Shown here: positions 8,802 to 50,233 of the stretch, in pieces
How the letters are laid out: every line of letters begins with the position of its first letter
Numbering within the stretch: position 1 is the stretch's first letter
Source: Nemertoderma westbladi
Lineage: Eukaryota > Animalia > Xenacoelomorpha
NCBI GenBank assembly: GCA_032718475.1
Contig: JAUCBJ010007525.1
Span: 1-64,000, forward strand
Direction: 5' to 3'
DNA length: 64,000 nt
Program-made: the position numbers and the translations under genes
Notes under the pieces: generated by a model
Seen by the model: only the letters and a program-made list of their open reading frames with translations
The model's database searches: none
What the model was told of the DNA's origin: nothing

Positions 8802-9148
8802 TTAAATCGACTGCAGTTTTCAAGCCCGCCTCTAGGCTGGTGTAAAGTGATCAAGGGCATCATCTGCTTAGATTTTGCTTATTTTTCTTTCAAGATTACA
8901 CTTGCATAAATTTATGTCACCTGCTGCGCGAAGGACACTAAGTTAAACAAATTATAGCTATGGATAGCAGCGCAAGCAACCCGCAGCGCCAAGCCTTTTA
9001 GCTCTAAGCTGGCTCCCAAACTACAAGCAAATAGACAATGGGTCAACGGTCAACAACAAACAACCCCTCTACCCTGGTAGCCAATGAGAGAACCTAGAGC
9101 TTTCGAGTATTTTTAGTAATTATTACAGGTAGGTAGGTATATTAATGC

Positions 9149-10340
9149 TGTAAAAGCTTTTGTGGGATAACTGATTCGTTTGCCTTGCTAACCAGTTCCC
9201 CCCCAGTCGCTAGAATACTCTAAAAAGGGATCTATAACTCGAATAGCACAAGCTACCGGCTGATTGGCTGATTCGCTGTGCGAAGGGATCTGGGCTACGT
9301 TTGATTGTCCAACTAGCTTGGGAAAGTATCTCCCAATAGAATTTGAGTTGATTTTGATTTCGACCTATCACAGATCTACTGAACTGAATTTTCCTATCTT
9401 TATGCTCTTTCTCTGTGTTGGGTGGAAGCCTTTGTAAATAAGGTTATTCTTATCAGTTTTCAGTGTTGTTGGTCTTCTTATCAGTTTTCAGTGTTGTTGG
9501 TCTTTCTTTCCTGAGCCAGGAGAGAACGGCTTGTAAATATTTTGTGCTTTTCTGTTTTAGTCTAACACTAGTAGGCTTAATTATAAAGGGCATATATCCG
9601 TTATCACAACAACAAACATATCAAAACAAACCAAACAATCCACACTGAATTACTGTGCATACCTTTATATTGTTATACTGCTATTTACTGTCAGTTCTTC
9701 ATAATATGGTTGATGAATTATTATATTTGGAATAACGATAAATAACCCCGAAACCCAATATTCTTGATATACCGAAGGTAAGAGAGAAAGGTTACATATA
9801 ACGATTGTGACTTATGTTAAAGTGGTTTGAAGTGAATCTAATGTTATTTGATAGACCCTACATGAGTCAGTCCGTGTTCCTTTTATATATAACTAAAATC
9901 AGTGAAGATCGGCAGATCAGTGTGCAGTATTGTGCAGCATTGTGTATGGGTGAACCTGATAACGAAGCATTTCCTAAAGAATGCGCCATATAAGTGAATT
10001 ATAACTAAGCCATATCATTGTGAGTAGTTTAAGTCATAACTCTGTTTGTATAAATAGAGCGCCACGTCCTAAAGGAACTGTTAATATTCCCCGAAGGTGA
10101 ATAATATTGTCAGAGATTATATAATACTGTCAGTCGAATAATACATTAGGCTTACATAGCAATAAGATTAAGCCGTCGAACCCAATCTCCCGGGTATATC
10201 CAGCGGGTGAATGATCGCGCACAGATTGGTTTCGACTAGTGTAGTGAATTAAATACTTGTCATAGACTAAAAGTGATTTATTATCTAGAAGACATCATAA
10301 TTTGGCGGGTTAAACTGCCAAAGGTCTAAAAGCGCGAACA
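9149..10340 (+). repeat. 5' LTR of BEL element (1192 bp)
   Basis: TGTAAAAGCTTTTG...AAGCGCGAACA, repeated at 26763-29501; has an extra ~28-bp tandem copy near 9447-9501. Confidence 0.95.
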
Positions 10341-10351
10341 ATAACGGATAT
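10341..10351 (+). promoter_or_regulatory. Putative self-priming primer-binding site ATAACGGATAT
   Basis: Abuts the LTR end, lacks the TGG of tRNA PBSs, and is the exact reverse complement of LTR 9594-9604 (ATATCCGTTAT). Confidence 0.55.
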
Positions 10352-10420
10352 CGCTTCTTTATTGCAGTAAGCAATAAAGTTGGGAGTACTGGTCAACCGG
10401 TAAACCTGAACGGTGTATCT

Positions 10421-10534
10421 GTAGGTCAGTAGGCCCAACTGCCAGAACCGGTACTGCTGTAGGCCCGTAGGTCCAACTGCCAGAACCGGTACTTCTGTAG
10501 GTCCGTAGGCCTAACTGTCCTAACCGGTACTTCC
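10421..10534 (+). repeat. 38-bp tandem repeat x3 in BEL leader
   Basis: GTAGG(T/C)C(A/C)GTAGG..AACTG..AACCGGTACT units at 10421, 10459, 10497. Confidence 0.8.
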
Positions 10535-10709
10535 CGTATAAGTACAGCAGTATTATTCGATTTGATTATATATGCCGGTAGGTCTTAATAATTAATCGGG
10601 GACGCCTGGTTTTTATTGGGATTTTACTTAGGCCTATTTCTGTCAGTTTTATTTATTTGTAGGCCAGTATTGAGCAGAAGGCGTGTAAGCCTGATCAGAT
10701 TGTGCAGAC

Positions 10710-11280
10710 AATTTGTAGGCTGGACTGTTGTCTGATTGCTGTTAGGTCTGAACGGATTGCAGTGTGTGTAGATCACCTGTCCGATAAAGAACGGTTAGGA
10801 AGTAGGGGCAGCGAATGCTGTAAGGTAAACCCCCAAATAAAGAATAAGTCGTACTACTGGGTTAGAACGCATACTACCTAATTATTTCGGAGTCTGCATG
10901 TCCTGTAGTTTATTTAGGCTTGAGAGTAGTCTGCCATCGTTGAGTCTGTACTTTGTTTGTGTAAGTCTGTACGGGTAGCGTATAATATTTATTTAGATAA
11001 TTTGTAGGCTGGATAGTTGTCTGGCTGTTATTAGGTCTGAACGGATTGCAGCGTGTGTAGATCACTTGTCCGATAAAGAACGGTTAGGAAGTAGGGGCAG
11101 CGAATGCTGTAAGGTAAACCCCCAAATAAAGAATAAGTCGTACTACTGGGTTAGAACGCATACTACCTAATTATTTCGGAGTCTGCATATACCGTAGTTT
11201 GTTTAGGCTTGATAGTAGTCTGTCAGTGTTCGGTCTGCATTTTGTTTGAGTAGTTTGTACGCGCAGCGTAATATTTATTA
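10710..11280 (+). repeat. ~289-bp tandem duplication in BEL leader
   Basis: AATTTGTAGGCTGGA...GTCCGATAAAGAACGGTTAGGAAGTAGGGGCAGCG... at 10710 and 10999. Confidence 0.9.
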
Positions 11281-12595
11281 TTCAGAGTTTATGCGATTAT
11301 TCGCAACATTCATTCCCCAAGTTTGTTCCTACAGTAATTGTGTTTGTTATACATACCGCTATAGTTAAATTAACCCCGGTACTACACGGGCTGCTTGGCG
11401 TAGGTAAAGACTGGTGATTTTGTGCATCGGTCACTCCAGCAGATGCCGTGGTTCTTTTAGCTGTTCAAGTATATTTAACTACAGATTACATGTTATACAA
11501 GTACTCGTACCTAATTTAGGGTTTAGTGTACAGTGCTTTCTGAAAGTAATTAGTAGGCATTATATTTGTGTTGTAAAGTGGTTGATAGGCACGTTCGATT
11601 AGCTCTATTAACTTCTAGGTAGGAACACTCCGTGATACATAACGTAGTACCTGTAGCGATACGGCTATAGGTCGTCAGGCGGTGGTATTTTCCTATCTGG
11701 ACAACGCAGTGTACTTACTACTACTTATTATTTCAAATACCGTAGTACCCTGTCCGTTGTAATAACCAGATTTCTAACCCTTTGTTAGGCTGGTTTGTAG
11801 ACTTCTTGTAAAATTACCCTAAAAATTTCGTATTTGTGTTTTTTGTAAATTTTTGTGTTTATTTAGAGATTGTAATCTCACCCGAATTGTACGTAATTTG
11901 TAGTATTAAGTAACTTAGGTAAATTAGAATTATTTGTTTTAGTGTCCTATAAGTAACACTTCACTGAAAGCGCACCGCTTTGTGTAGTGATTGCTCCTCA
12001 GAAATAATAACATTTATTTCAAACATTGACAAAACCCATTAAAACGGGTATATATATATTATAAATCAAATCTAACGATTTATAAATAGTAGGCCTACCA
12101 TACAACCATTAGGTCTCCATATCAGTTGGTCTACTGCTCAAATAGCGGTAATAAAGTAAGTAAAGTAACCAAGTAACCCTAAAAATTCAGAAATTCAATT
12201 ATTTAAAGTAATTGATATACCGGTATTTACGATAGGCCTATTATCTTTATTTCTATAAATTTAGGCTGAAACTATACCGGTACTTTATAATTAATTCTAG
12301 TCCAGAATTATAATTATATATACTACAAAACTGTAAGCTGTATACCGGTATTCCCGATAGGCCTATTATATATTTATATATATTTGCTAAAATTATACCG
12401 GTATTCTGTGATAAACCTAGTCTGTAATAATAGTTATATATACTATAAGCATACCGGTATTCTAATATATTATATATATCACGCTACACTGAGTAGCAGT
12501 ACCGGTAATTAATTACTAGGCTAGCAGTTAATACTGAGTTACTAGACTTGCTCAGACTGTAATACAGCAGTAGACATTCAACTGTATACATAAAC

Positions 12596-15500
12596 ATGTC
12601 TGATACTAAGCAGAACCTGTCAGACAGTTTATTAGATGTAACTATCTGCGACTCAGATAGAGATGTAGAACCATCTAGTCGTAAGTTCAGTTCACCTCCC
12701 ACTGTGAGGAAGGTCATCCCTCCAGTAGTAATAACAGAACCTAGGCTGGTCCAACATCGTAGGTCTATCATAGGCACTCGAGCTCAAGTCAAGCGGGACC
12801 AAGAAGCAGCGGAACAGCAACAACCCGCGAGCCAAGAATTTATTTCTCAGCGGCCCGACAGCTCCAGTAGCGAAGATACGGTAGAACTGACACCCGAGCG
12901 CGGAGCAAAGATGATGGATGCGGTTTATACGGATCCCCTTCTCATCCTTCCTGCAGCCGTACTCGCTAGGTTATTGATTGCGGTGGAAGAACACCAGATC
13001 GATTGGACGAGAAGTCAGCGATCAACTAGAGATAGCTATGCGGGATACACGAGGGAAGAACTGAAGTCTATTGTCGAGTCGCAATGGAACTTCCCCGGAC
13101 CCGGACTCCCGTTTGATTTATCAGAAGCTGCCTGGGAAGACATACACCGGATGGGAGTAGCCAAGGAAACCATCGATCCAGCTGTATGGAAGAGGTCCGC
13201 AGCCGGATACGCACAAGGATTCTTCAGCTCTATGGAGCGAGTAGAAAAACAACTGTTTAAACAACCTCAAGGACCTCAAGAGCAGGGACAACTGCTTTAT
13301 CAAGTTAGAGAAAGAATTCTGCGAATTAGGCTAATCTTATCAGCCTTTGAGGAGGCTTCTAAAAGAAGACAAGACACGTCGTTGCAAGTTGCCGTAAAGA
13401 CTTGGTTTCAACGGGTGAGTCGCCAGGTTCAAGGAGCAGCTCAGTGGAAAGCTCAATTGGAGGAGCGCTCAACCCATGGAGAATCAACGGACGCTATTTC
13501 TTCCCAAGTGGAAAGTGAAGCGACGGCAGAGAAACCGCATAAGAAGGATGCCATTGACATCTATCTGTCAGACTATCAGCGTTTTTTGGGAGATGAAGAG
13601 TTGAGGAGAAGGCTAGATGGACTTAGCCCTAATAGTGAAGGAGCCCAGCGTGTGTTGGATGCAATAGATGTAGATAGGTTAGCGGCGAATCAAGCTAAAT
13701 TCGATGAACAACTCCGCATCGCGAGAGAAAAGGAAGAACAAGTAAGGAAAAAACGTATAGAAGACAGAAAGATAGCAGCCGTGGCAGAGGCAGAAAGAAA
13801 AGCGACCTTAGCAGAAGCAGTGGCAGAGGCAAAAGCGGCAGCAGCAGAAGCCGAGGCAAAGGCAAAAGCGGCAGCAGCAGAAGCCGAGGCAAAGGCAAAA
13901 GCGGCAAAAGCAGAAGCCGAGGCAAAGGCAAAAGTGGCAGCGGCAGAGGCAAAAGCGGCAGCGGCAGAGGCAAAAGCGGCAGCGGCAGAGGCAAAAGCGG
14001 CAGCGGTAGCGGAAGCAGAACGGAGAGCGGCTGAAGAGATCACCCAACTGGAGTTGGAAAATCTTCAAGAGAATCAAGACTGCATAAATAAACAGTTAAC
14101 AGCTAGTAATATGCAGATGATGAATCGATCTACTCCCAAAAGACAGGGATATACATCAACTGAGGAAGGCGATACCACCGATACTGAAGGCAAAGGAAAT
14201 AGATCTCGTCTAAGCAGACGTAAAAGAACATTCCACCGTCAGAAATTGCCTGATTTGCCTCCAGCTGTTAGAAGGCAACTAAATAACACCAACTTAGGTA
14301 GTACAGAGCCCACAGACCAAATAATTAAAATAGAAAGACTCCCTACTATAGTAGATGAGCCTGAAATAATTAGGCCTGTTCTTGAAATCACCCCTTCGGT
14401 GATAGACACACCTGTGCTCCCTGAAACTACCTCTAAATTCCCTCTGCATAGCACTAAGCTACCTGTGCCCCGTAGAACTGCCCGGGAGACAGTTCAGGTC
14501 CTAGACCCCGAGCGAAATATTCCTGATTTGTCGCCCGTGGTCCCTTGTCCGCTCGCTACAACGTTGGCGACTCCCGCTTTGGCGGTCGAATGGGTGGACG
14601 AGAGACGGCGGGGGATGGATATCCTGCTCGGGCAGATGCAGGAGACTGTCCAGCAATTCAAGGGCACAGTAAGGGAAAGTAGACTAGAGTTGCAAGAAGT
14701 GCAGCAAAGTATCGCGCTAGAGCGCGATAAATTAGTAAATACTCAAAAGGGTATACTGCCACCCTCTGTAACAATGTGTCAACCTGTTAGGTCTGAAGTA
14801 TCTCATGCGCAAGGTGTGGAGCCTACACGCATATATACTGCTAGCGAAGTAGAAACTCCTATAGTGAACCCTATTAAGGGTAATTATAGACCTGTTGATA
14901 ATGACATTCCCTATAGAACTGATCATAATCCGAGAAATTTATATACCGATAACTCGATATTAAACAACACGATGGCCCAAGAAAGTTTTACGCGTCAAAT
15001 GGCTAGAACCGAAGCCCGGCAAGCAGTAAAGGTGGGAGAGATCGTCAAGTTCAATGGAGATGAGATGAAATGGTTACCTTTTAATGAATATTACAAAGAT
15101 AACATACAGAACTCTGTACTATCTAATGGAGAAAAACTTAGATACCTCATCGAGTGCTTGGAAGGATCTCCCAAGTTAATGGCGTTAAAGTTTATTGGAC
15201 ATCCAGACGGATTAAGACAAGTTTGGGACACACTAAACATCAGGTATGGTAATAGGAATAATATCGCTAAGTATTTATATGCAAAATTAGTAGCGCCCAG
15301 AAAGTTCATCAGCAGTGGGATAATAGAGTTTTCCGATGAGATTCAAGAGATCTGTAGACAATTAGATTGGTTAGGTAAGTCTCATGAATACCAAAGTTCT
15401 ATGGTCATTGGAGCTGTGGCTTCTACTTTACCGAAAGGTGGGGTAGGCACACGCTGGGATAAGAAAGTACTATATATGATGGAACAACAACGACGAGACC

Positions 15501-18500
15501 CTACCATGACTGATCTCATGTCATTCTTGGATGGAGAAGTGAAATTGCAACTCCTCAAGCAGTCCCGAGAGAAGACACCGGAAAACAAGGTAAGTGAAAA
15601 ACCCGTCTCTAGGAGAAAGGTAACACCAGTGTGTTATACAGACGACGGCGAAAGCCAGACTTCTCAAGGAGAAGATAGCGGGAAAGACACTGATAGATCT
15701 TATTATGTCAATAAGATGCCTAAAGATCAGGTAAGTAAATTCAAGTCTCTAGCAAATGACAGGAGGGAACAGGTAAGAAAAACTCCTCCCACGTCTCCCA
15801 AGAGAATTCAGGTGAGAAAGCCCGAAGAAAGGGCAAGTGTACACAATGTGACTCAGAATAAAGTAAGTAACATCAAACCGAAATGTGCGCTGTGTGACGG
15901 GACCCACCATTTGAATAGGTGTGATGAATTTCTAAAGAAATCATTAACGGAGAGACGCGAAGTCATGTGGGATAAGCGGTTATGTTATAATTGCCTCAGA
16001 CAAGGACACCAACGGCGAACCTGTTTCTCTGACATAAGGTGTGCAAAGTGTGGTGCGAAACATCATATCTTGTTGCACGCTGAATTCGATCGAAATAGTC
16101 AGAATCAGGTAAGTGATTCCGAGCTACATGTCCAATTCAGTGATGTGAACGACACTGATCAATCTGAGATGGAAGGATTCTATACAGACGAGTTCTCCAA
16201 TGAAAACGAATCCTGTTACATGATAAATACCGCAGTGTATCGAGCACTCACATATGAAAAGGATACAGACAACGACTTCACTCTAACTACTTCTGAGCGA
16301 CAACCATCTTGGAAAGAACCATCTTCCAATGTAGGGATCCGAGAGTTTCCTGTGGTGCAAGTAAGGGTTCACGGACCTAAGAGGAGTTATGTAGTGAACG
16401 CCCTCCTTGACTCCGGTAGTACAGGAACATTCATCGACAAAGAGCTAGCCGAAGATATATTTGCCGGACAACCCAAGTTCCAAACTAAGCTCAACATGTC
16501 CGGCATTATGCAAGTTTGGAAATCTACAATAATAGCTGATTATTATGTAGGCGCGTTGTCCACCCCACAAGACGAACTAGGAGAACATAGCATAAGGTCA
16601 GTGAAAATGGTAGCTATAAAGAACTTCGCTACTACTCAAGCAGACCTTTATAATTGGGACGAGGATGAGAGCATCCAACATCTTAACATACCTCGATTCC
16701 AGACTGATTATCCTGGAGTGCAAATACTCATCGGCCAAAACGCGCATGAGGCGCTGGAGACATTAGAGAAACGGCCTGCTCAACCGCAGCCCCTACAGAC
16801 CTATGCGGTAAGAACTAGAGTAGGTTGGTACTTTACTGGCCCTTCCCGTAGAACACTCAGAGAAAGACTACCGCCAGAGAGCGTATGCCAGTTGAGTGAA
16901 TGGGAAGATGATACCAGTGAGGGAGACAACTTAACTGAGGGAACTCCATACTCCTCAGATAATGACGACGTTCACCAGCTTTTTGATGAGGAGAATACCA
17001 TCGATCTCCTTAAGGAAAACGAGGCTTGGCAAAACCAAGTTAACTTATGTCAACTTCTCTATCCATCTGAACGAGAAGTTTATAACGACGAGTTAAATGA
17101 CGTCATTGAGCGTTGCAATGCCAAGACTCGAGATGAACATGCTGTACGATTCTTTACGCAAGAGGCGGTAGAGCCCAATTCCTACGATAAAGCCTTATCG
17201 GTGGAAGAGGAAAGGGCCAAGCAGATCCAAGAGACAACTACACGTTTCCTCAAAGATCAAGGCAGGTATGAAGTCGGTTTACCTTTTCGCAAGAGAGAAC
17301 CGAAGTTCATCAATAACAGACCTTTGGCGGAAAAAAGAATCGCGCAACTCCATCGACACCTTACGGCTAATTCTTCAGCTAAAGCAATGTATCAAACACA
17401 GCTGGAGAAATTTATTAGTAAGGGATACGCGGAGAGAGTACCGGAAGAAACACCTGTGACTGAAAGAACGTATTACTTAACTCACCATTACGTTCCTAAA
17501 CCCGGTAAGCCACATGAAGTGAGAGTAGTGTTTGATGGTTCCGCTCTTTACATGGGTCAATCCCTTAACTCTGAATTGTTACCCGGACCCAACTTGCTTC
17601 AATCTTTGTTGGGAATTCTTTTAAGGTTGAGACAATATTCGATTGCTTTCGCCTCCGATATAGAAGGCATGTTCTTACAAGTCAAGGTGCTAGATAGGGA
17701 TCGAGATAGTCTACGATTTCTGTGGTGGCCCGAAGGAGATCTCAACCAGAAACCGGTGGAGTACTGGATGACCATCCAGGCCTTCGGGATAATCTCAAGC
17801 CCTTCCAACGCCTGTTCGGTAGTGCGTACCACTGCAGAGGACAACCGAGAGGCATTCTCTAAGGAAGTGATCGACAACATCAAGAGAGACATATATATGG
17901 ACGACAATCTGAAGTCCCTTCCATCAGTTGAGGAAGCCATTGAGGTCGCTAAAGGAACGGTAGAGTGCTTAAAAAGAGGTGGATTTCGATTAACCAAATT
18001 CACCAGCAACTCCCGTGAGTTTCTGGAGTCGATCCCTGCGGAGGATCGAGGAGCGAAAGATCTCGATTTGATCAAAGATGATCTGCCAGAAACCAAGACA
18101 CTCGGCTTGAAATGGGACACAGAGCGAGATATCCTGTTTTTCCAGCTAAAACAGCGAGATAATCCAGTTCGAACCAAACGGATTTGCTTAAGTATACTGA
18201 GCACTTATTTCGATCCATTGGGATTTATTAGCCCAGTTATATTGATTGCTCGTAGTTTGGTACAACAAATGTGGCTTGAAAACCACTCATGGGACGATCC
18301 ACTTAAGGGAGAATTATTAAAGAAGTGGATGAAATGGGAAGATTCTCTGCCGGCTATCGAGGATTTTATAATTTCCCGTTCATATTTTGGTCATGTTCTC
18401 CCTACGTATTCCTATCAACTCCATGTGTTTGGAGACGCCAGCGATATGGGAATAGGTATAGTAGCCTATCTAAGGGTGGAAACTCCGGATGGAATCAAAG

Positions 18501-20779
18501 TCACCTTGGTTACTTCTAAGGCATTAATCAACAACAAGTTGAAAGTTCCTCGAGCGGAGTTAAAAGCGGCTCTATACGCTACAGCCATCGGCCGGAATGT
18601 AACCGAACAGATTGACTATCCATTAGAGAAAACTGTCTATTGGACCGACGCTTTACTCGTGTTAGAGTATATAACCAATGAAGTCTGTCAGTTCAGCGTC
18701 TTCGTTACCAACAGGGTAGCCATCATACTTAGTCGCACGACGATGGACCAATGGAGACATTGCCCCGGAACGATTAATCCAGCAGACATCGCGTCCCGAG
18801 GAGCGACTCCAAAGGAATTGGTAAATACTCCCGAATGGTTAGGAGGACCCGACTTTCTCTACAGAGAAGAAGAAGAATGGCCTCCTCATCTCACCACAGC
18901 AGAGATCAGACAGGCCAAGGGAGCGGAGAAAGTTAAACCCAAAACTCGAGCGAGTAAATCGAAGTTGTTTAAACCTGCGGTTGATCTATCTGTATTAGTT
19001 ACTTCCGGAGAGGATGCTTTGGATCAGAAACCCACCGCCACGACTAGAGAAGTCTTGGAAATCCGTGACAAGGATTGGAAATCTGGAATACCAGATATTT
19101 CGCAAGGACTCTCGCCTCTCTTGCAGAGAGCGATACGTCACTACAGTTCCTGGAATCGGCTCTGTAAAGCTGTCACCTATCTGAAACGATGTTTTCATCA
19201 TCGTTACTCCGGGACAAAGACCCATAGTGATGATGCTCCATCAACATCTGCACGAGTCCATGTTGTTAAAGATCTTCCCCAATACAAGGTATCCGACAGG
19301 TTTCTAAAGGAGAAGATCAGTTACCAGGAGCATGATGAAACCAACAAACAGATGCTGAGACTCCTACAATGCTATGAGGATTCCGATAAGTATTTCCTGT
19401 TATTAAGAAATCCACAGATGCGCTTAAGGGATCGCTTCTCTAGTACCATGATAGATGGGTTAATATGTGTTGGAGGCAGGCTAACCAATGCCCCATTATC
19501 CTTTGACACTAAGTTTCCCATCCTCATTAGAAATCTTGACATACAAATCAAGATAATTGTAGATGTTCATAGCAAACTGTATCATGCTGGTAGAGAACGA
19601 GTTCTGAGCGAAATTCGAACTCGCTACTATTTTTATAAACCCCGTAGGGCTCTGAACCAAGTTCTTAGGAACTGCATACCCTGTAGGAAAGCATTCAGTA
19701 GGCCTTTAACACAGCGAGAGGCAGAATTACCTAGGGAAAGAGTAAGCTTCTATGAACCACCCTTTACTAATACCGGTGTGGATTTATTTGGCCCTATTGA
19801 AGTATATCGTGCCCGGACTATAGTCAAGAGATGGTGTGTCATCTTCGTTTGTATGACTTGTAGAGCTATCCATCTCGATATGGTAAACGATCTATCCACC
19901 AACAGCTTCGTGTTGAGTTTACGACGACAGATCGCTCGCTTCGGAACCAGTAACACGATGAGATCGGATAAGGGAACGAACTTCATTGGCGCCAACAACG
20001 AAATTCAAGCTTACGTAAAGGACTGGAACAAAAGACAGGTGGACGATCAGCTAAGGATAACAGCGTCTAGCTGGACCTTCAACGCCGCCGACGCCCCTTG
20101 GTGGGGAGGAAGTTGGGAGAGATTGATTAGGAGCGTGAAGACTGCGTTCCACTTTATTGTGCCTTGTCGCGCTTATCTCACCGACGAACTATTGCGGACG
20201 TTAATGGAGGAAATCGCCGCCTATCTCAACGAAAGACCGCTTATGCCAGTCTCTTCAAATCCGGATTCCCTGGAAGCGCTAACACCCGCGCACTTTCTAC
20301 TGAAGAAACCCGTAGCCATGCTCCCACGATCGGAGATCACAGACGGAGACGAGTACTGCCGTCGAACCTGGCAACTTATGCAGTTGCTATCCCGTCGTTT
20401 CGCTGACCATTTCGAGAAACATTACCTGCCCACTCTACAACTTCGAACTAAGTGGTTTGCGCAGCAAGAAAACGTCAGCGCTGGAGACATGGTGCTTATT
20501 GTGGACCCCGATCTCCCACGTAAGCGATGGCAAACAGGACGTATCATCGAGACTTATATCTCGAGCGATGGTTTGGTGCGATCAGTAGAGCTCGTCGTCA
20601 TGCGGCGGAACTTTAAGAAACCAGGGATAGTCTTTGAGACTCAACAGCTCAATCGCCCAGTGGGACGTTTATGTTTACTGGAAAGAGACAGAGAGCTCTC
20701 CGGAAACTATGGAAGGCAAGAAACTCTTCCCACGACCACTTCCCTAATCCAACCGACATCTAGGGACTCCCCAACTTAA
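12596..20779 (+). CDS. gag-pol: BEL/Pao Gag-Pol polyprotein, 2727 aa
   Basis: BEL triple Cys/His cluster (CALCDGTHHLNRC, CYNCLRQGHQRRTC, CAKCGAKHHILLH), protease LLDSGS, RT IYMDD, Pao RNase H FGDAS, integrase GVDLFGP..RSDKGTNF..WGGSWERL; uninterrupted. Confidence 0.97.
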   Translation: MSDTKQNLSDSLLDVTICDSDRDVEPSSRKFSSPPTVRKVIPPVVITEPRLVQHRRSIIGTRAQVKRDQEAAEQQQPASQEFISQRPDSSSSEDTVELTPERGAKMMDAVYTDPLLILPAAVLARLLIAVEEHQIDWTRSQRSTRDSYAGYTREELKSIVESQWNFPGPGLPFDLSEAAWEDIHRMGVAKETIDPAVWKRSAAGYAQGFFSSMERVEKQLFKQPQGPQEQGQLLYQVRERILRIRLILSAFEEASKRRQDTSLQVAVKTWFQRVSRQVQGAAQWKAQLEERSTHGESTDAISSQVESEATAEKPHKKDAIDIYLSDYQRFLGDEELRRRLDGLSPNSEGAQRVLDAIDVDRLAANQAKFDEQLRIAREKEEQVRKKRIEDRKIAAVAEAERKATLAEAVAEAKAAAAEAEAKAKAAAAEAEAKAKAAKAEAEAKAKVAAAEAKAAAAEAKAAAAEAKAAAVAEAERRAAEEITQLELENLQENQDCINKQLTASNMQMMNRSTPKRQGYTSTEEGDTTDTEGKGNRSRLSRRKRTFHRQKLPDLPPAVRRQLNNTNLGSTEPTDQIIKIERLPTIVDEPEIIRPVLEITPSVIDTPVLPETTSKFPLHSTKLPVPRRTARETVQVLDPERNIPDLSPVVPCPLATTLATPALAVEWVDERRRGMDILLGQMQETVQQFKGTVRESRLELQEVQQSIALERDKLVNTQKGILPPSVTMCQPVRSEVSHAQGVEPTRIYTASEVETPIVNPIKGNYRPVDNDIPYRTDHNPRNLYTDNSILNNTMAQESFTRQMARTEARQAVKVGEIVKFNGDEMKWLPFNEYYKDNIQNSVLSNGEKLRYLIECLEGSPKLMALKFIGHPDGLRQVWDTLNIRYGNRNNIAKYLYAKLVAPRKFISSGIIEFSDEIQEICRQLDWLGKSHEYQSSMVIGAVASTLPKGGVGTRWDKKVLYMMEQQRRDPTMTDLMSFLDGEVKLQLLKQSREKTPENKVSEKPVSRRKVTPVCYTDDGESQTSQGEDSGKDTDRSYYVNKMPKDQVSKFKSLANDRREQVRKTPPTSPKRIQVRKPEERASVHNVTQNKVSNIKPKCALCDGTHHLNRCDEFLKKSLTERREVMWDKRLCYNCLRQGHQRRTCFSDIRCAKCGAKHHILLHAEFDRNSQNQVSDSELHVQFSDVNDTDQSEMEGFYTDEFSNENESCYMINTAVYRALTYEKDTDNDFTLTTSERQPSWKEPSSNVGIREFPVVQVRVHGPKRSYVVNALLDSGSTGTFIDKELAEDIFAGQPKFQTKLNMSGIMQVWKSTIIADYYVGALSTPQDELGEHSIRSVKMVAIKNFATTQADLYNWDEDESIQHLNIPRFQTDYPGVQILIGQNAHEALETLEKRPAQPQPLQTYAVRTRVGWYFTGPSRRTLRERLPPESVCQLSEWEDDTSEGDNLTEGTPYSSDNDDVHQLFDEENTIDLLKENEAWQNQVNLCQLLYPSEREVYNDELNDVIERCNAKTRDEHAVRFFTQEAVEPNSYDKALSVEEERAKQIQETTTRFLKDQGRYEVGLPFRKREPKFINNRPLAEKRIAQLHRHLTANSSAKAMYQTQLEKFISKGYAERVPEETPVTERTYYLTHHYVPKPGKPHEVRVVFDGSALYMGQSLNSELLPGPNLLQSLLGILLRLRQYSIAFASDIEGMFLQVKVLDRDRDSLRFLWWPEGDLNQKPVEYWMTIQAFGIISSPSNACSVVRTTAEDNREAFSKEVIDNIKRDIYMDDNLKSLPSVEEAIEVAKGTVECLKRGGFRLTKFTSNSREFLESIPAEDRGAKDLDLIKDDLPETKTLGLKWDTERDILFFQLKQRDNPVRTKRICLSILSTYFDPLGFISPVILIARSLVQQMWLENHSWDDPLKGELLKKWMKWEDSLPAIEDFIISRSYFGHVLPTYSYQLHVFGDASDMGIGIVAYLRVETPDGIKVTLVTSKALINNKLKVPRAELKAALYATAIGRNVTEQIDYPLEKTVYWTDALLVLEYITNEVCQFSVFVTNRVAIILSRTTMDQWRHCPGTINPADIASRGATPKELVNTPEWLGGPDFLYREEEEWPPHLTTAEIRQAKGAEKVKPKTRASKSKLFKPAVDLSVLVTSGEDALDQKPTATTREVLEIRDKDWKSGIPDISQGLSPLLQRAIRHYSSWNRLCKAVTYLKRCFHHRYSGTKTHSDDAPSTSARVHVVKDLPQYKVSDRFLKEKISYQEHDETNKQMLRLLQCYEDSDKYFLLLRNPQMRLRDRFSSTMIDGLICVGGRLTNAPLSFDTKFPILIRNLDIQIKIIVDVHSKLYHAGRERVLSEIRTRYYFYKPRRALNQVLRNCIPCRKAFSRPLTQREAELPRERVSFYEPPFTNTGVDLFGPIEVYRARTIVKRWCVIFVCMTCRAIHLDMVNDLSTNSFVLSLRRQIARFGTSNTMRSDKGTNFIGANNEIQAYVKDWNKRQVDDQLRITASSWTFNAADAPWWGGSWERLIRSVKTAFHFIVPCRAYLTDELLRTLMEEIAAYLNERPLMPVSSNPDSLEALTPAHFLLKKPVAMLPRSEITDGDEYCRRTWQLMQLLSRRFADHFEKHYLPTLQLRTKWFAQQENVSAGDMVLIVDPDLPRKRWQTGRIIETYISSDGLVRSVELVVMRRNFKKPGIVFETQQLNRPVGRLCLLERDRELSGNYGRQETLPTTTSLIQPTSRDSPT

Positions 20780-22060: not shown

Positions 22061-22430
22061 GGAAGGCATTGACTAACGGACAAATGGCCCGAATGTGCGT
22101 AGTTATGACCAGTTGTGTGGTATTTGTGAGTTTATAGGTGAATGTTACTGCTAAAGTGTGTTTACAGTAGCTAGTCGCAATCGTAAAAGTAACCTAACTC
22201 TCCAAGGAAAACCTGAAGTACATCTAAGCCTTTGGGACGGACAGTTGAGTGACTTGTGCCGGTTATCGTTGTCGTTGTACGGCTACGTCGTTGGCGAAAG
22301 TATAGCGACAGCGGTACATCGGCGCTGAGAATCTCATACTGTCCGGGGGCAAGGGAGAAATAGGCAGCGACGCCCGCTCGCCTAACAATATATAAACTCA
22401 TTATAATATTGGTGAACTTGTATAGCAGAT

Positions 22431-25400
22431 GTGACTGAATTAATAGAAGATGATCTTGGTATCAGGGAGAGATATATTCTACCTTTACAAGCGTTTGTCG
22501 ATAGCTTGATACGCGGCGACGCTGATCCAACTACTACGGAGGACGATGGTCGTTATATTGAACCGCCAATGTCCCAGGAGCAACTTACGCGTGAATTGGA
22601 CTATAGAAAATTCACTGCTCGCTATACGCATCGTAATGGTATGTATATGGACTTCTTAACTACCGGCCATCCTATTGATTTACACGACACCGACGATGTC
22701 GATACCGAAAGGGAAATGGTTTTATTTAAATATCATACCCAGCGGAGTCGAAACGATAAATCGAGAATAGAACACGAGAACTCTATTCGAAATAAGCTCG
22801 AAAGAGAAGACGTTGAAGAACCTGATAAACATAGCGGCTTCAACGAATATCTAGAATTTCTAAGAGAAACCTATCTCAATGTTGCCAGTCAACAAAACCT
22901 CGAAACTCGATATCCCCAAGGTATACATCCAGATCCGATAATGGAACTCAAACGGCTCTATTTTACGATGATGTATCTTACCGCCGATCGACCACTCCCT
23001 GTCGTTCCAGATAGCTTCGAACAGATGGAGGAATATTGTAAAACTGGAGAGCGATCACCCGCGTTTCCCCTTCAAGACGTGCGTCTTTGGTATTACTGTG
23101 ACGAATGCCCTAGACCTAACCAGCAAATCGAAAGGCATAAGCATCCGCGGAGACGTTGCGCTAAACACAGTTTTACACGATATACTTATGGGAGTTTCGA
23201 GCGTAACCTTTTCGACGTATCACCTACGGTCGCGCGCCTTAAGCGATCATTGAATAAACCCATGATCAGAGTTCCGGAATACTCGGTCAGACCTCCCCAT
23301 TCCCAAGTGATACCTCAAACTCTAGATCCTAATAGTATTACGGATCCTCCCGAACTGTACTCACTGTTCAAAGATCTAGTGTTACCTGAACAGTTGATTG
23401 GTGGCACTCTGGTAGTGGGTTCGTTGGATATTCGCCAACCTTACCTTGCTGGACTAGGACGCGGTCATCTAATATCACCGTTTAACCCCTACAACCGTCC
23501 TGGCCTTCCCCTGATCCAACCTGTTACAGAAGTCGAAGAGAGCGTGATACGAAATGCATTAGACGCTATTCGGCAGAAAATCGGAAAAGGAACTTACGAT
23601 TGCTTGGAGAAACGTAAATTGCAACAACAAGTCCAAGCGGTGAAAGAACTAGCTTTACCCCAGTTCGATAGAGAAATACAAAATCTAGAGGAGGACATCG
23701 AACGTGGACGAACCTACTCTTTACAGGAATTCCTGGACGAGCGCTTGCAACAACAAGCGGAGGAAAATCAGCTCGAGGAGAGACATATAGAGCTGACTGA
23801 GAGGGAAGAAGCAGCTTTAGCCCAACCAGAAGCTCAAATTCTCGTGACAGATCTCTATTCCAAAACGATTCTCCACCCCTCGATGGTTCCCCATTTTAAA
23901 GACAAGCTCTTTGCTACGGTACAGCCTCAACCGGTTAACACCGATCTCAGATCTCAAGAGCTCGTTGCTGACGCTCCCATGCTACAACGTCCACCCGTCG
24001 AGGCTGCTCGTGTCGATGGCGTACTTGTTGAGCCTCCGGACAATAGAGCGGATCTTGTCCGTCGCATGGTGCACGATGTTAACATACGTGCTAGACCTTT
24101 GCCGGACTCATTTTATGGAATTAAGGATCATCCTTATTACGTCAATTTAAAGCAATATTACATGGTAAAACCAGAAGATCCTACGCATAGTCTGAAGTTT
24201 CTACCATTGATCAATCCTCTCGACCTCGTCGAACTCGAACAACTACAAAAACATCTAGATCAGCTAGTTAAACTAAACTCATTTCGAAAACCATATAATA
24301 TTTCCCGAATAGAGAAAGAAATATCACCCCCGTACAATCTTGATGGATTCATTAAAACTCGATTGGTACACTGGAATCTTGACGTGTTATTCGAGGAAGA
24401 AAGAATAAAACGATATGGAGATGTGGAAACCTATACTACACAATGCTTAAAGTATAGAGATTTACCCAATGCTAGCGAATGCGCTACTTTGTGGCATCCA
24501 GTGGGAATGACTCTCGAAAACGCCACTAAAGAATGGAACGAGACTCTTAACGTTATCGAGATGTATGGCGTTGTTACTTATGACAACGAAGGTAGCGTTC
24601 CGGTGGGAGAACTAGGAACTACGCGAATGATACATATACGAGGACTCGCTGGTTCTACCCACGTATTCACTCGAGCGTGTTCCGACGTGATCGATTATTC
24701 TTTTGAAACCCTTACGGAGACACAAAAGAAACTTCGACATGGACAATTCGAGCTCGCGCAGCGTTACGTCACTGATACCGAGCGCAAACCGGCCATGGGT
24801 ATCGACGGATCAATGTTACCCCAACCCGTGCTCGAAATGTTGTTTAACGAAAGAATCCTAAAAATCGGTTCAGCTGTTTATGGAGATCTCCAAAACGACT
24901 TCCGGAATATGGAAAACATTCCATACCCTTTCGTTGATACTCAGCTGATTGCTCCTTGGGCCGAAGGCCGAGGTTTCTTTCGCACTATACACCCCTATAC
25001 ACCCAGCGACATTACTAAGGTACAACGGACATCCATCGGACATCTTGCCTTTCAAGAATATGGATGGAACTTCAAAGTTGGAAATCCTATCAATTACCAG
25101 CAGGTATATGGAGATCATTACTACCGTTTATATTTTGAAGGACCATTAACTGCGCCTGGTGCAGTATATAGCTTTATGAGTGTTCCACTTCGCCCTTCCT
25201 TAGCTATATACACGATCTTTGAAAACGCAGCACTTGCCGGTTGGTTAGCCGATGTGTGCAGTCGTACCATACGCGCTCACCCGTTAATACTTGGAACTAA
25301 ACTCGCCAAGTTAGACGAACACAATAAGTTCATACGTTTCGAATGTTTCCGGCGCTTTCTGACTCCGTTCCGTAACGTCGATAGTCAGTTCAAAGACCGC

Positions 25401-26684
25401 GCGCTGACCAAGCTCAGTCTTAGAGACTCAGCTGCGGAGAAACTGAGTAGCGCTGGATTTGCCGTCTTTCAAGACGTTTGTATACAGAACCTACATTCAT
25501 CCGTTATACAAAGACCCCGAATATCTACAGGTTATTCTGTCATGGAAATACAGACAGTGGGTCCACTTACGGAAACCGACGCACCCACTTCGTCTATGCA
25601 GCTGGAGGATGAACCAGTATGCTTGGAATCAGAAGCGATTCAACCTACGGCTTCCCGGAGCAGTGACAATGATTATGTCATAGAGTGGTATCAAGGTCCA
25701 CAGCGTCTCACAGCGTACGATTATCGACACGCCAACTACGTTTCCCGAAAACGTTGTCGATTATGCGCATCGAGAGACCACTTCACTCCTCTAGACTCGA
25801 GCGTACCTTGTTCCTATTTCCTCGAACAACCGATGATGGAAATATATTGTGCTTATTGCCGGCTTAATAACTCTCATATATTTGCCGTCTGCCCACAATT
25901 TATGACTCAATGTCACTACTGCCAACTTAAAGGACATGAAAGTTACAATTGTCCCTTTAATCGCGATTTAGAGAGCGTAGACGAGATGATCACCCTGCGA
26001 TACATCCGAGCTTGGGAAGCGAACGCCGATTTACATTGCGAATCCCGACATCGCTATTACCCTGGACGAGCTTACGAGGGAGTTTACGCGTTCCATCCTT
26101 ATCTATTCGCGTCGATTGAACAGAAAACACGCGTACCAAGTTACGAGTTAATGAAGCGTGTTGGTGAGTGTATTTCCACCAAGTTTGTCAGGAAATACCT
26201 TAGAAACGTTAACCCTAATGATATAACCACATATCACCTGATCAATTTTATCCGTCAGGACCCTGAGTATGGCGACATCTTTGTGAACTCGCATCCTGAA
26301 CTACAGGAAATATCTCGGCGACCATATGAATATCGAACCCGAGAACGCGAGCTGGAGAGAACCATTAAACCGAGAAAGTTCCTCACCACTCACGGTCCAC
26401 CCACCGCTAGTGTCCAGACGACCCGTCAAGGACCCGTAGGAGCTGCTGTCCTGAGACGCGCTCTAAAGGCCGTTAGACCTCACTCCACTGAGGTTGATAT
26501 TAATCAACCAGGTACTTCGACCGGCGGGTATACCGATCGTAACCCTGCACCTTCTGATGCAATTATATTGCACCCTTCACCTAGGAGCTACAGCCCTCCT
26601 CGTAAAGTGGCTCGCCCCAAAGAGAAAATGACTCTTGCTAGCTTTAAAAAACTGCGTAAACGCCGTCCGCGCAAGAAAGACTAA
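22431..26684 (+). CDS. BEL accessory ORF2: DEDD (WRN/EXD-like) 3'-5' exonuclease-like domain, three CCHC zinc knuckles, basic C-terminus
   Basis: 1417 open codons (GTG start called; first ATG at 22569 in CCGCCAATG); VVTYDNEG, LPQPVLEMLFNERILKIGSAVYGD, PFVDTQ, SIGHLA..YG; CCHC array 25755-25955; KKLRKRRPRKKD tail; no obvious signal peptide or TM anchor. Confidence 0.85.
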   Translation: MTELIEDDLGIRERYILPLQAFVDSLIRGDADPTTTEDDGRYIEPPMSQEQLTRELDYRKFTARYTHRNGMYMDFLTTGHPIDLHDTDDVDTEREMVLFKYHTQRSRNDKSRIEHENSIRNKLEREDVEEPDKHSGFNEYLEFLRETYLNVASQQNLETRYPQGIHPDPIMELKRLYFTMMYLTADRPLPVVPDSFEQMEEYCKTGERSPAFPLQDVRLWYYCDECPRPNQQIERHKHPRRRCAKHSFTRYTYGSFERNLFDVSPTVARLKRSLNKPMIRVPEYSVRPPHSQVIPQTLDPNSITDPPELYSLFKDLVLPEQLIGGTLVVGSLDIRQPYLAGLGRGHLISPFNPYNRPGLPLIQPVTEVEESVIRNALDAIRQKIGKGTYDCLEKRKLQQQVQAVKELALPQFDREIQNLEEDIERGRTYSLQEFLDERLQQQAEENQLEERHIELTEREEAALAQPEAQILVTDLYSKTILHPSMVPHFKDKLFATVQPQPVNTDLRSQELVADAPMLQRPPVEAARVDGVLVEPPDNRADLVRRMVHDVNIRARPLPDSFYGIKDHPYYVNLKQYYMVKPEDPTHSLKFLPLINPLDLVELEQLQKHLDQLVKLNSFRKPYNISRIEKEISPPYNLDGFIKTRLVHWNLDVLFEEERIKRYGDVETYTTQCLKYRDLPNASECATLWHPVGMTLENATKEWNETLNVIEMYGVVTYDNEGSVPVGELGTTRMIHIRGLAGSTHVFTRACSDVIDYSFETLTETQKKLRHGQFELAQRYVTDTERKPAMGIDGSMLPQPVLEMLFNERILKIGSAVYGDLQNDFRNMENIPYPFVDTQLIAPWAEGRGFFRTIHPYTPSDITKVQRTSIGHLAFQEYGWNFKVGNPINYQQVYGDHYYRLYFEGPLTAPGAVYSFMSVPLRPSLAIYTIFENAALAGWLADVCSRTIRAHPLILGTKLAKLDEHNKFIRFECFRRFLTPFRNVDSQFKDRALTKLSLRDSAAEKLSSAGFAVFQDVCIQNLHSSVIQRPRISTGYSVMEIQTVGPLTETDAPTSSMQLEDEPVCLESEAIQPTASRSSDNDYVIEWYQGPQRLTAYDYRHANYVSRKRCRLCASRDHFTPLDSSVPCSYFLEQPMMEIYCAYCRLNNSHIFAVCPQFMTQCHYCQLKGHESYNCPFNRDLESVDEMITLRYIRAWEANADLHCESRHRYYPGRAYEGVYAFHPYLFASIEQKTRVPSYELMKRVGECISTKFVRKYLRNVNPNDITTYHLINFIRQDPEYGDIFVNSHPELQEISRRPYEYRTRERELERTIKPRKFLTTHGPPTASVQTTRQGPVGAAVLRRALKAVRPHSTEVDINQPGTSTGGYTDRNPAPSDAIILHPSPRSYSPPRKVARPKEKMTLASFKKLRKRRPRKKD

Positions 26685-26762
26685 CTGTTTAGAGTATTTA
26701 TGTATATTAGAAATTGTGATTTTGTATATTTTATAGACTTAAATCCCATTTTCTGGGAGCGG

Positions 26763-29501
26763 TGTAAAAGCTTTTGTGGGATAACTGATTCGTTTGCCTT
26801 GCTAACCAGTTCCCCCCCAGTCGCTAGAATACTCTAAAAAGGGATCTATAACTCGAATAGCACAAGCTACCGGCTGATTGGCTGATTCGCTGTGCGAAGG
26901 GATCTGGGCTACGTTTGATTGTCCAACTAGCTTGGGAAAGTATCTCCCAATAGAATTTGAGTTGATTTTGATTTCGACCTATCACAGATCTACTGAACTG
27001 AATTTTCCTATCTTTATGCTCTTTCTCTGTGTTGGGTGGAAGCCTTTGTAAATAAGGTTATTCTTATCAGTTTTCAGTGTTGTTGGTCTTTCTTTCCTGA
27101 GCCAGGAGAGAACGGCTTGTAAATATTTTGTGCTTTTCTGTTTTAGTCTAACACTAGTTAGTAGGCTTTAATTATAAAGGGCATATATCCGTTATCACAA
27201 CAACAAACATATCAAAACAAACCAAACAATCCACACTGAATTACTGTGCATACCTTTATATTGTTATACTGCTATTTACTGTCAGTTCTTCATAATATGG
27301 TTGATGAATTATTATATTTGGAATAACGATAAATAACCCCGAAACCCAATATTCTTGATATACCGAAGGTAAGAGAGAAAGGTTACATATAACGATTGTG
27401 ACTTATGTTAAAGTGGTTTGAAGTGAATCTAATGTTATTTGATAGACCCTACATGAGTCAGTCCGTGTTCCTTTTATATATAACTAAAATCAGTGAAGAT
27501 CGGCAGATCAGTGTGCAGTATTGTGCAGCATTGTGTATGGGTGAACCTGATAACGAAGCATTTCCTAAAGAATGCGCCATATATGTGAATTATAACTAAG
27601 CCACCCCTGGTTTTAAAAACTTTTAGTGTCATGAAAAATACCGTAAAATCTGTGACTGCGAGCTCTTATATAATGATCTGCATAGCAAAAAAAAATATTT
27701 TTTAAAATATTTTATCGAGCTCCTTTTTTTTAGCACCTAAAAATGTGTTCTAGAACATTTCTTCGGTGGTGTGCGGAGTTGTCGAATTTAGGTAACTTGA
27801 ATACTGATTCCTTATATTAGCCATTATATGCCAAATTCGCTAAGGATTTCAAATCTGCAAACAGTTTCATCATATCTTGTTTAGTTTTCGAGATATCGTG
27901 AAAAATGTGATGCGCACCCAAAAAGTGCGTGCGGCACCAAATTTTCAATTTTCAGTAAATTGAAATATTCACTAAAAAATGAAAATTATCGATTTCTATA
28001 GGTTTTTTGCGATGCTGAATGCAATGGTAATATTTTCCAGAAGGCTGGGTGAATTGTCATACTACTTTTCATTGGGTGCTGAAATTTGGAAAATGAAAAT
28101 CAAATTTTCAACCATTGGAAATTTTCAATATAAAGCTCTGATTTACGATTTATTAAGGTTCTGTGTATTGCTGAGTGTAACAGTAATGTTTTCTCAATAA
28201 GAGGTTTACTGTGTATACAATTTTTACTAAACTGTCTAAAAAATGTGATGAGATATATTTAATTTCTAATTCATACGTTTGTATTACTGTCATCCTACTT
28301 ATATATTCTAAAATGTTTCAAAACACAATACTTCGATTAATTATCTTTATGTATTTTTATTAAACTTTTATGAATATTTATATAACTTTTACAAAGTTTT
28401 GAATAACTTTTAGAACTTTTCTATGACTTTTTTCGGATTTTTCTATAACTTTTAGAAAATTTTATACATGTTTTGGAAATTATTATATAACTTTTGGTAA
28501 TTTTTATACAGCTTTTGCTAACGAATATGATGCTTTGGGAAACATTATATACATAGTAAACCAGTTATCCAGAAAATAATACTGTAGCATTCAAAACCAT
28601 ACAAAACCTAAAAAAAATAGCTAATCATAGGTTTAAACGGGATATTACAAAACTTATAAAATTTGTCATTTTTGATTTTAAAATTTCAGCACCCAATGAA
28701 AAGTAGCACAACAATTCACTCAGACTTTTGGAAAATATTACCATTGCATTCAGCATGGCAGAAAACCTATAGAAATCGATAATTTTCATTTTTTAGTGAA
28801 TATTTCAATTTACTGAAAATTGAAAATTTGGCGGCGCACGCACTTTTTGGGTGCGCATCACATTTTTCACGATATCTCGAAAACTAAACAAGATATGATG
28901 AAACTGTTTTCAGATTTGAAATCCTGAGCGAATTTCGCATATAATGGCTAATATAAGGAATCAGTTATCAGGTTACCTAAATTCGACAACTCCGCACACA
29001 ACCAAAAAAATGTTCTAGAACACATTTTTAGGTGCTAAAAAAAAGGAGCTTGATAAAATATTTTAAAAAATATTTTTTTTTGCTATGCAGACCATTATAT
29101 AAGAGCTGGCAGTCACAGATTTTACGGTATTTTTTATGACACTAAAAGTTTTTAAAACCAGGGGTGTAAGCCATATCGTTGTGAGTAGTTTAAGTCATAA
29201 CTCTGTTTGTATAAATAGAGCGCCACGTCCTAAAGGAACTGTTAATATTCCCCGAAGGTGAATAATATTGTCAGAGATTATATAATACTGTCAGTCGAAT
29301 AATACATTAGGCTTACATAGCAATAAGATTAAGCCGTCGAACCCAATCTCCCGGGTATATCCAGCGGGTGAATGATCGCGCACAGATTGGTTTCGACTAG
29401 TGTAGTGAATTAAATACTTGTCATAGACTAAAAGTGATTTATTATCTAGAAGACATCATAATTTGGCGGGTTAAACTGCCAAAGGTCTAAAAGCGCGAAC
29501 A
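26763..29501 (+). repeat. 3' LTR of BEL element, interrupted by a DNA transposon
   Basis: Matches the 5' LTR in two pieces, 26763-27601 and 29167-29501. Confidence 0.95.
27602..29166. mobile_element. Non-autonomous foldback DNA transposon (CAC termini, ~490-bp TIRs, 5-bp TSD; possibly Transib-like)
   Basis: CACCCCTGGTTTTAAAAAC...GTTTTTAAAACCAGGGGTG; TSD TAAGC at 27597-27601 and 29167-29171; absent from the 5' LTR. Confidence 0.9.
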
Positions 29502-29984
29502 AATGTCATGTAGTATTATAGGAATTGGACCAAATGGAATGGTGGGGAGTCAGGTCAGGTCAGTGGGCAGGAGTATGTGAATCCAATAATATTGATTACC
29601 AACAATATTATTATTAATTAATTGTGAACAAGACGAGTGAACAATACATGTCTGGGGGCAGTGGGACTTCTCTGGGGGAGCAGTGCCCCCAAAGCCCCCC
29701 CCCCCCCCAAAGCCCCCCCCCCCCCCCACACGATACGGGCCTGCAGGTAGTGCTTTATTTAAAATCTTCTGAATTACTTATTCAGAAGTTATGGAATACA
29801 GAAAACTCCGGTTCTATTGAAAAAAATGTATTTCAACCGTATTTATTAGAAATTATCATTGCATTCTATATAAAACAAAACCAACATCTTATCTTACTTC
29901 CATTTAGCTAACAGTTTTTGAGGACCTACAGTGGTAATTGCAGTGGGATTAGATGATCAGTAAACAGAGTAACTAAATGCGCCA

Positions 29985-36425: not shown

Positions 36426-36739
36426 ATTAAATTAGTTTTCTTAACATGGCAACATTCTTGCAGTCAATTATACGTTTGCAAAATAGGGCGGGAATTTTTG
36501 TCAATGCATTATTCTTGGAATTTTCCGTATTTCATTGGTAACAATTAGCTACAAGCATAGCGCCTGCAGTACTTTTGTACAAAATAAGTAACCGTAAAAA
36601 GTATCCACTCAGCAAGTGCATTTTTTAGAACAAAAATAACTGATTCCATTATTATTCTTACATCACTACATTAGGATGCTCGCTTATGGGAACCTGATAA
36701 AGTTGTACCCATTGCACCTATGGGAATCACCACGAACCA

Positions 36740-38097: not shown

Positions 38098-38201
38098 AGA
38101 GGCTTATTATGAGGCATAATGAGATACGCATTGCGTATCTTCTTCAGTCAACCAATAATGGCCGATCAACAAATAAAAACTGATAATCACTACTATAATG
38201 G

Positions 38202-38630
38202 CAAATCCCAAATTCCATATTCCCAAATCCCAAATACCTTAATCCCAAATACCTTAATCTCAAATACCTTATTCCCAAATCCCAAATACCTTATTCCAAA
38301 ATCCCAAATACCTTATTGCAAAATCCCAAATAACTTATTCCCAAATACCTTAAATTCCAAATCCCAAATACCTTATTCCCAAATCTCAAATACCTTATTC
38401 CCAAATCCCAAATACCTTATTCCCAAATCCCAAATACCCTATTCCCAAATCCCAAATACTTTATTCCCAAATCCCAACTACCTTATTCCCAAATCCCAAA
38501 TACCTTATTCCCAAATCCCAAATACCTTATTCCCAAATCCCTTATTCCCAAATCCCAAATACCTTATTCTCAAATACCTTATTCCCAGATCCCAAATACC
38601 TTATTCCCAAATCCATTATTCCCAAATCCC
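38202..38630. repeat. 22-bp tandem repeat
   Basis: ATTCCCAAATCCCAAATACCTT units. Confidence 0.9.
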
Positions 38631-38694
38631 ACATGGTATTTGCGTCCAGTTTCCCCCCTGTCTCTCATTTGTATAGTTCTATGAAATGACCATA

Positions 38695-49810: not shown

Positions 49811-49847
49811 TTAATATTTTGTAACAATTTTCAATAATGTTGCAACA

Positions 49848-50231: not shown

Positions 50232-50233
50232 TA

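Follow-up and report, generated by a model that had tools for sequence, protein, structure and literature searches.

Probable self-priming of reverse transcription in a BEL/Pao retrotransposon of Nemertoderma westbladi

BEL/Pao elements form the least studied superfamily of LTR retrotransposons, and one member, located in contig JAUCBJ010007525.1 of Nemertoderma westbladi, raises the question of how minus-strand DNA synthesis can begin when no tRNA site follows the 5′ LTR. The 64,000 nucleotides analysed here are called the window. In the ICTV description, Belpaoviridae are primed by host tRNA-Arg or tRNA-Gly at an 18-nt site, with replication assumed by analogy to Metaviridae (PMC8742986). 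Self-priming has been shown for Tf1 (PMC7175516), where the RNA's initial 11 bases anneal to the site and cleavage by RNase H falls between bases 11 and 12 (PMC7175516, PMC4600332), proposed for Tj1 of S. japonicus (PMC4600332) and, for Tcn1 and the TAR lineage of Copia, predicted (PMC6317226). An earlier note on this DNA proposed Tf1-style self-priming for the BEL/Pao element, and the evidence below makes it probable that minus-strand DNA is primed by a piece of the element's own RNA rather than by a tRNA. The features on which the argument depends, all on the forward strand, are as follows.

9149–29501, forward strand: BEL/Pao LTR element, 20.3 kb including a 1.6-kb insertion
9144–9148, forward strand: left target-site duplication AATGC; right copy AATGT at 29502–29506 (5 bp, one mismatch)
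9149–10340, forward strand: 5′ LTR, 1,192 bp, TG...CA, from comparison of the LTR pair
9594–9604, forward strand: predicted self-primer 11-mer ATATCCGTTAT; second copy at 27185–27195 in the 3′ LTR
10248–10253, forward strand: ATTAAA, the sole poly(A) hexamer of the LTR, with a putative role
10341–10351, forward strand: primer-binding position ATAACGGATAT, adjoining the 5′ LTR and the exact complement of 9594–9604
12596–20779, forward strand: single gag-pol frame, open from 12563, with matches to Pao peptidase A17, DUF1759, integrase H2C2 and DUF5641
22416–26684, forward strand: second open frame between pol and the 3′ LTR, spanning 1,422 aa from stop to stop
26755–26762, forward strand: purine-rich tract GGGAGCGG, adjoining the 3′ LTR, with a putative role
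26763–29501, forward strand: 3′ LTR, broken at 27602–29166 by an inverted-repeat insertion

The coding content agrees with the classification given in the earlier note, with Pao-type Gag and Pol families in the order PR-RT-RH-IN. The gag-pol frame yields a Peptidase_A17 match at 7e-36, contains the YMDD motif of RT and carries acidic motifs that we take to be of the RNase H type, with predicted activity. There are 677 homologues of the RT-RNase H region; the 120 listed share 32–45% identity with it, PF05380 is present in the top homologues among these, and cnidarians and echinoderms account for most of their named sources. The LTR end at 10340 is set by the LTR pair (TG...CA) together with the 5-bp target duplication. 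Because the two LTRs are only 2 substitutions, 3 indels and one inverted-repeat insertion apart, this is a young copy. That insertion (27602–29166) is non-coding and ends in long inverted repeats (CAC...GTG); it comes with a duplication of 5 bp, TAAGC, and by its features is presumably Transib-like.

Like the ICTV Belpaoviridae, the element has LTRs within 0.2–1.2 kb, gag-pol in the order PR-RT-RH-IN and a purine tract (PMC8742986), along with TG..CA ends and a target duplication. Unlike them, it spans 20.3 kb with its 1.6-kb insertion, against a stated genome size of 4.2–10 kb, includes a leader of 2.2 kb and a second frame of 1,422 aa, and lacks an 18-nt tRNA-Arg or tRNA-Gly site, there being no TGG start in the first 40 nt after the 5′ LTR. 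The element is thus assigned to BEL/Pao by its proteins, and its priming, as predicted from the sequence, departs from the ICTV description. Membership of the Tf1/Sushi group is defined by a Ty3/gypsy (chromovirus-related) Pol, and the Pol found here consists of Pao-type families.

Several other features accompany this architecture. The second frame matches neither a Pfam family nor, in two homologue searches, any homologue; it has a Cys/His-rich stretch near residues 1125–1195 and, being intact in a young copy, is possibly a captured accessory gene. The leader (10341–12595) is unusually long at 2.2 kb and contains a 289-bp duplication (10706–11279) and repeated ACCGGT motifs, and Gag (13751–14041) has a long N-terminal extension with Ala/Glu/Lys repeats. 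Elsewhere in the window, Gypsy-type frames (RT, RNase H, integrase) lie on the reverse strand at 42046–46965 between 102-bp direct repeats with unclear TG..CA ends. In regions 39671–40342 and 49160–62675, an rve integrase frame is accompanied by weak matches to P-loop families and by several long frames that lack a family, a layout that we take to be Polinton-like, and tandem arrays with units of 34, 24 and 22 bp occupy 32558–33217, 36699–38086 and 38183–38704.

The complementarity on which the proposal was founded is exact. The 5′ LTR ends at 10340 and is followed directly by an 11-mer without a TGG start, which is the perfect reverse complement of 9594–9604 and of 27185–27195; each motif occurs only at these places, and the element contains no copy of the 11-mer with one mismatch. 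The self-match is exactly 11 nt long and begins at offset 0 from the LTR end, so that the primer 3′ end would lie opposite the LTR-abutting base, as the earlier note had described. Dinucleotide shuffles of the LTR reached 11 nt at offset 0 in 3 of 5,000 trials and at least 11 nt at offsets 0–5 in 9 of 5,000, and 46 of 60,038 window positions outside the LTRs, the 10341 site included, have an 11-mer complement in the LTR. A published rule for predicting self-priming (PMC6317226) calls for at least 10 bp starting 0–5 bp after the LTR, and here 11 bp start at offset 0. The predicted primer 3′ end is AT, compared with AC in 16 of 21 matched relatives described below.

Family copies of the element in sequencing runs indicate that this part of the LTR is preserved. 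Six of seven listed runs contain part of the stretch, and four runs from four studies (X1, X3, X4 and X5) were compared by contigs fitted at 80% likeness; X1 may be the source of the window, X4 carries another organism label, and all four consist of contigs. The comparison delimits one further feature.

9555–9605, forward strand: block common to diverged family copies, containing TTTTAG (G at 9560), TATAAAG (9582–9588) and the 11-mer

Among the contigs listed, the fit begins at 9555, with loose ends there in at least 10, 4, 2 and 3 contigs of X1, X3, X4 and X5, respectively. It is lost behind 9603 in at least 8, 2 and 1 contigs of X1, X3 and X4, and behind 9605 in at least 4, 1 and 1 contigs of X1, X4 and X5. 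Two X4 contigs (370 and 609 nt) fit 9555–9605 and 9555–9603 only. Among the differences listed, no substitution reaches 1% in 9565–9603, and the block shows three substitutions (9561, 9563 and 9564), one insertion directly after 9554 and, inside TATAAAG, the loss of 1 nt at 9585, which recurs in all four runs. The sequence directly after 9605 varies between copies, and uncovered bins at 9628–9639 in three of the four runs were not counted as evidence. Diverged copies thus retain a block of roughly 50 nt that ends at the 3′ end of the 11-mer, an outcome that a chance match does not predict. At least 11 contigs stop after 9603, so some family copies carry a different final base in the 11-mer; this counts against the self-primer reading, the partner base in the site being unobserved.

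We used a 45-sequence RT-RNase H alignment as a query for distant relatives and obtained 97 loci: metagenome contigs supplied 80, the best of 440, and genome contigs all 17 of theirs. LTR and post-LTR sequence were both readable in 20 of the 97, and the other 77 lacked one part or were unresolved. For the 20, LTR ends were taken from direct repeats (15), from a sister copy (one) or by eye in collapsed contigs (four). These relatives are distant, with roughly 40% RT identity to the window element, and the nearest group by identity (L001, L006, L051/L060, L061) falls outside the set with readable primer sites. No relative came to light when viral and metagenome contigs were scanned with a single sequence or viral contigs with an alignment, and the 32 places in viral contigs that match a 16-nt motif are none of them LTR-like by blastn.

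Co-variation between primer site and LTR, a matter raised in the earlier note, is evident in this set. A self-match of at least 10 nt is present in 13 of the 20 relatives and in 0 of 412 swapped LTR/site pairs. The 13 correspond to about nine groups (L030/L092, L034/L056, L082/L084 and L003/L007 are sisters); their matches begin 0–5 nt from the LTR end and differ in sequence. Four are contiguous and nine exist only across a GTRAG..AG LTR intron; when any GT..AG intron is permitted, the counts become 14 of 20 relatives and 14 of 412 swapped pairs. Compensatory changes occur at two positions in L082/L084, where the site ends GTG or TTA and the exon part reads CAC or TAA, and the sister pair L023/L026 likewise has changes on both sides at two positions. 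Three relatives (L021, L071, L093) have a TGG-type site without a self-match, and three (L073, L081, L089) have self-matches of 5–8 nt and are unexplained. A candidate-end scan of nine further loci gave matches of 10–12 nt in seven, and is weaker since ends were picked by the match and a rival end scored higher in two loci.

Each relative's site follows its own LTR while the letters differ from one relative to the next, a pattern that a fixed host tRNA would not yield. Because the primer itself is copied into the new primer site during plus-strand synthesis, letter-for-letter agreement of a site with its own LTR records a primer derived from that LTR. Self-matches found only across an intron-like GT..AG segment occur in L003, L007, L012, L013, L023, L026, L030, L034, L035, L064, L082, L084, L088, L090 and L048/L019, with donors and acceptors that are mostly textbook. 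In the selected set of 21 matched relatives, 16 have the match split by an intron with 3–7 nt upstream of it. The window element is an intron-less form, and in most matched relatives the primer would have to be assembled by splicing out an LTR intron. Splice-built primers in the window element itself were rejected: the best one measures 8 nt when YAG acceptors are used, 5 nt when donors must be GTRAG and 10 nt with any GT..AG intron, none of which beats the contiguous 11. Of 19 relatives, 14 carry a poly(A) hexamer downstream of the match, and in L082/L084 AATAAA is directly 3′ of it.

The survey also returned some records of separate interest. A Wolbachia chromosome record contains, at L093:7827-13438, a BEL/Pao element whose site is of the TGG type and whose LTRs are 98% identical, as either host contamination or a true insertion. 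BEL/Pao matches L081–L092 and L094–L097 come from contigs of genomes labelled bacterial MAGs, and are probably host DNA in bins. At L090:1581-6300, a second LTR pair (331 bp, 99.7% identical) is nested in the leader of a self-matching BEL/Pao element.

The earlier note also described three stems framing the site, which we located at 10301/10315, 10330/10352 and 10357/10371. Two of these fold, and a further pairing is a candidate.

10301–10322, forward strand: U5 hairpin, 8 pairs including one G-U, fold probability 1.00
10357–10379, forward strand: leader hairpin CTTTATTGC/GCAATAAAG, predicted fold of -8.5 kcal/mol
9583–9590, forward strand: candidate second helix arm, 8 pairs with 10355–10362, using TATAAAG

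Both hairpins are in the local minimum-energy fold (z -2.88). The 5-bp U5-leader stem AAGCG/CGCTT is present in the letters but was rejected as a structure: its pair probability is 0.00 in four of four co-folds with the LTR arm, it is not above chance (p 0.085) and the 15 relatives give a Fisher p of 0.91. A long duplex of the block at 9561–9604 with the leader was likewise set aside. It appeared in one co-fold, its partners shifted with a slightly different window, six nulls gave p values of 0.03–0.43, and most family sequence differs at its base 10390 with no change listed at the partner 9570.

When the RNA is taken from 9594 to 10400, at least nine core pairs between primer and site form at probability 0.84–1.00. 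The core helix has probability 0.00 in whole-RNA folds starting at 9149 or 9265, and at most 0.05 whatever the start when folds are extended to 10600. This modelled loss counts against self-priming, though whole-RNA folds over 1 kb are unreliable. The second helix, which joins bases upstream of the match to the leader after the site, is enriched across 17 non-redundant relatives, with Fisher p values of 0.01 (duplex energy), 8e-5 (tight gaps, set post hoc) and 0.006 (loose gaps). In the window element it is suggestive only: p is 0.019 with tight gaps, 0.058 with loose gaps and 0.17–0.25 in another test, the co-fold probability is 0.00, 0.03 or 0.90 depending on arm length, and the helix competes with the leader hairpin.

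One difficulty concerns where the RNA begins. The earlier note had cautioned that TATAAA at 9582 is too near 9594 for canonical spacing, and that caution stands. The usual distance from TATA to start is about 30 nt, which from TATAAAG would put the start near 9610, past the 11-mer; a start beyond 9604 would contradict the self-primer reading. In the strict geometry of Tf1, which would be one form of self-priming, the RNA would start exactly at 9594 and its first 11 nt would be the primer. This agrees with the helix being most stable in folds beginning at 9594, with relatives' matches of 10–15 nt (mostly 11), which fit a short primer copied to its end, and with a conserved block starting 39 nt upstream of the 11-mer, about the size of a core promoter. 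Yet no TATA lies at -30 here, a TATA-like motif is absent 25–35 nt upstream of the match in all 19 relatives, the spliced relatives would require first exons of 3–7 nt, the enriched second helix draws on bases upstream of the match, and an acceptor-like TTTTAG (G 9560) opens the block 33 nt upstream of the 11-mer, with no strong splice donor upstream of it. We consider a start precisely at 9594 unlikely, and to describe the primer as the RNA's initial 11 nt, on the pattern of Tf1, is probably not exact. A start upstream of 9594 is likelier, given the intron-split matches, the lack of an upstream TATA and the second helix enriched in relatives, and on this sequence evidence we regard its chances as about even. 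In Tf2 of fission yeast, a downstream start gives RNA unable to be reverse transcribed (PMC5341516), so a downstream start could coexist here with a productive one.

That precedent also lends something to a reading in which two starts are used, TATA 9582 driving a messenger without the primer, which would then be supplied solely in trans, either by another RNA or by a second genome copy's 3′ LTR. Retention of TATAAAG within the family block fits, but the sequence right after 9605, where such a start would fall, differs between copies, the TATA itself bears the 9585 deletion in all four runs, and a second, upstream start is compatible with self-priming; we judge this reading very improbable. 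The pairing might instead be structural, serving to mask the site or to allow 5′–3′ circularization by way of the copy in the 3′ LTR, with a host tRNA fragment or other small RNA as the true primer. With a start set by TATA 9582, the 11-mer would be confined to that portion of the RNA which derives from the 3′ LTR; priming by half-tRNAs is known in Copia lineages (PMC6317226), and TGG-type sites occur in 3 of 20 relatives. Against this, the exact primer position is matched in 13 of 20 relatives with differing letters, so each family would need its own host fragment; ARAGORN found no tRNA gene in the window, and no Rfam match lies within 9000–30000, results on which a self-encoded tRNA-like primer was also rejected. 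Structural pairing is accordingly an improbable explanation, if less so than two starts. Least probable of all is a chance match in an AT-rich 1.2-kb LTR picked from many windows. A p value near 1e-3 can arise in a large scan, and the clade that bears the signature does not include the window element, which has a long branch of its own, but chance accounts neither for a family block that ends at the 11-mer in four runs, nor for the missing TGG site, nor for the relatives' pattern set against 0 of 412 controls.

Self-priming from an LTR-derived primer is thus the reading that we favour, and the proposal of a Tf1-style mechanism in BEL/Pao holds in its main part, through family conservation ending at the 11-mer and the self-complementarity of relatives with compensatory changes. 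The U5-leader stem is not supported. The further suggestion that such priming is convergent applies with respect to Tf1, from which it would be independent because the superfamilies differ. Within BEL/Pao the matter stands otherwise. RT-RNase H and Pol trees place the window element on a long branch outside the group with all self-matching relatives, with a FastTree support of 0.36 (103 rows; loci with fewer than 400 aligned residues dropped) and an SH-aLRT of 99.6 (query-anchored alignment, 45 rows). Forcing it into that group gives an AU p of 0.119 (quick tree, no mixture model), so a shared origin is not rejected.

As in the Ty3/gypsy groups Tf1/Tf2 (Schizosaccharomyces pombe), Tj1, Tf1/Sushi and Tcn1, the site complements 11 nt of the element's own LTR and there is no tRNA site. 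Unlike Tf1, the element has a Pao-type Pol of another superfamily, its primer, 736 nt ahead of the LTR end, probably does not sit at the RNA 5′ end, most of its matched relatives would build the primer across an intron, and cleavage is predicted. By this analogy the element is likely to work as Tf1 does in priming from its own RNA, while not being a Tf1/Sushi member. It also resembles the plant Ty1/copia TAR lineage (Houba, Osr-1), for which self-priming is predicted by the LTR-site rule (PMC6317226), and differs from it in being a metazoan-type BEL/Pao element with integrase last. No report of BEL/Pao self-priming was found in the literature searched, subscription papers, Repbase, GyDB and supplements aside; priming terms are absent from the main text of two main BEL/Pao papers (PMC554778, PMC3118150), and the accessible parts of PMC3601003, PMC13524379, PMC6934838 and PMC3286476 hold nothing on BEL/Pao priming.

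The proposed mechanism would run as follows. Genomic RNA would begin at or upstream of 9594, and the 11-mer would pair with 10341–10351, possibly aided by the second helix just upstream. A cut after 9604, probably made by the element's RNase H by analogy with Tf1, would leave a 3′-OH paired to the LTR-abutting base. RT would then copy U5 and R back to the cut and jump to the 3′ R, which would extend to ATTAAA at 10248; this hexamer would place R downstream of the primer, as strand transfer requires. Finally, the new primer site would be a copy of the primer made during plus-strand synthesis, and this would account for the joint change of site and LTR.

A broader scenario can be offered tentatively, at somewhat less than an even chance. 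Much of BEL/Pao may have dropped tRNA priming and may cut its primer from inside its own 5′ RNA. In most families a host-spliced LTR intron would build the primer, such that only spliced 5′ ends start replication, and the window element would be an intron-less, possibly separately evolved form whose TATA-like motif serves as an RNA pairing arm. If self-priming is confirmed here, it would occur in all three LTR superfamilies, would bear on whether tRNA priming or self-priming came first, and would explain elements missed by annotation tools for want of a tRNA site. Were the primer cut from the RNA interior or assembled by splicing, host RNA processing would be tied to transposition at a new control point.
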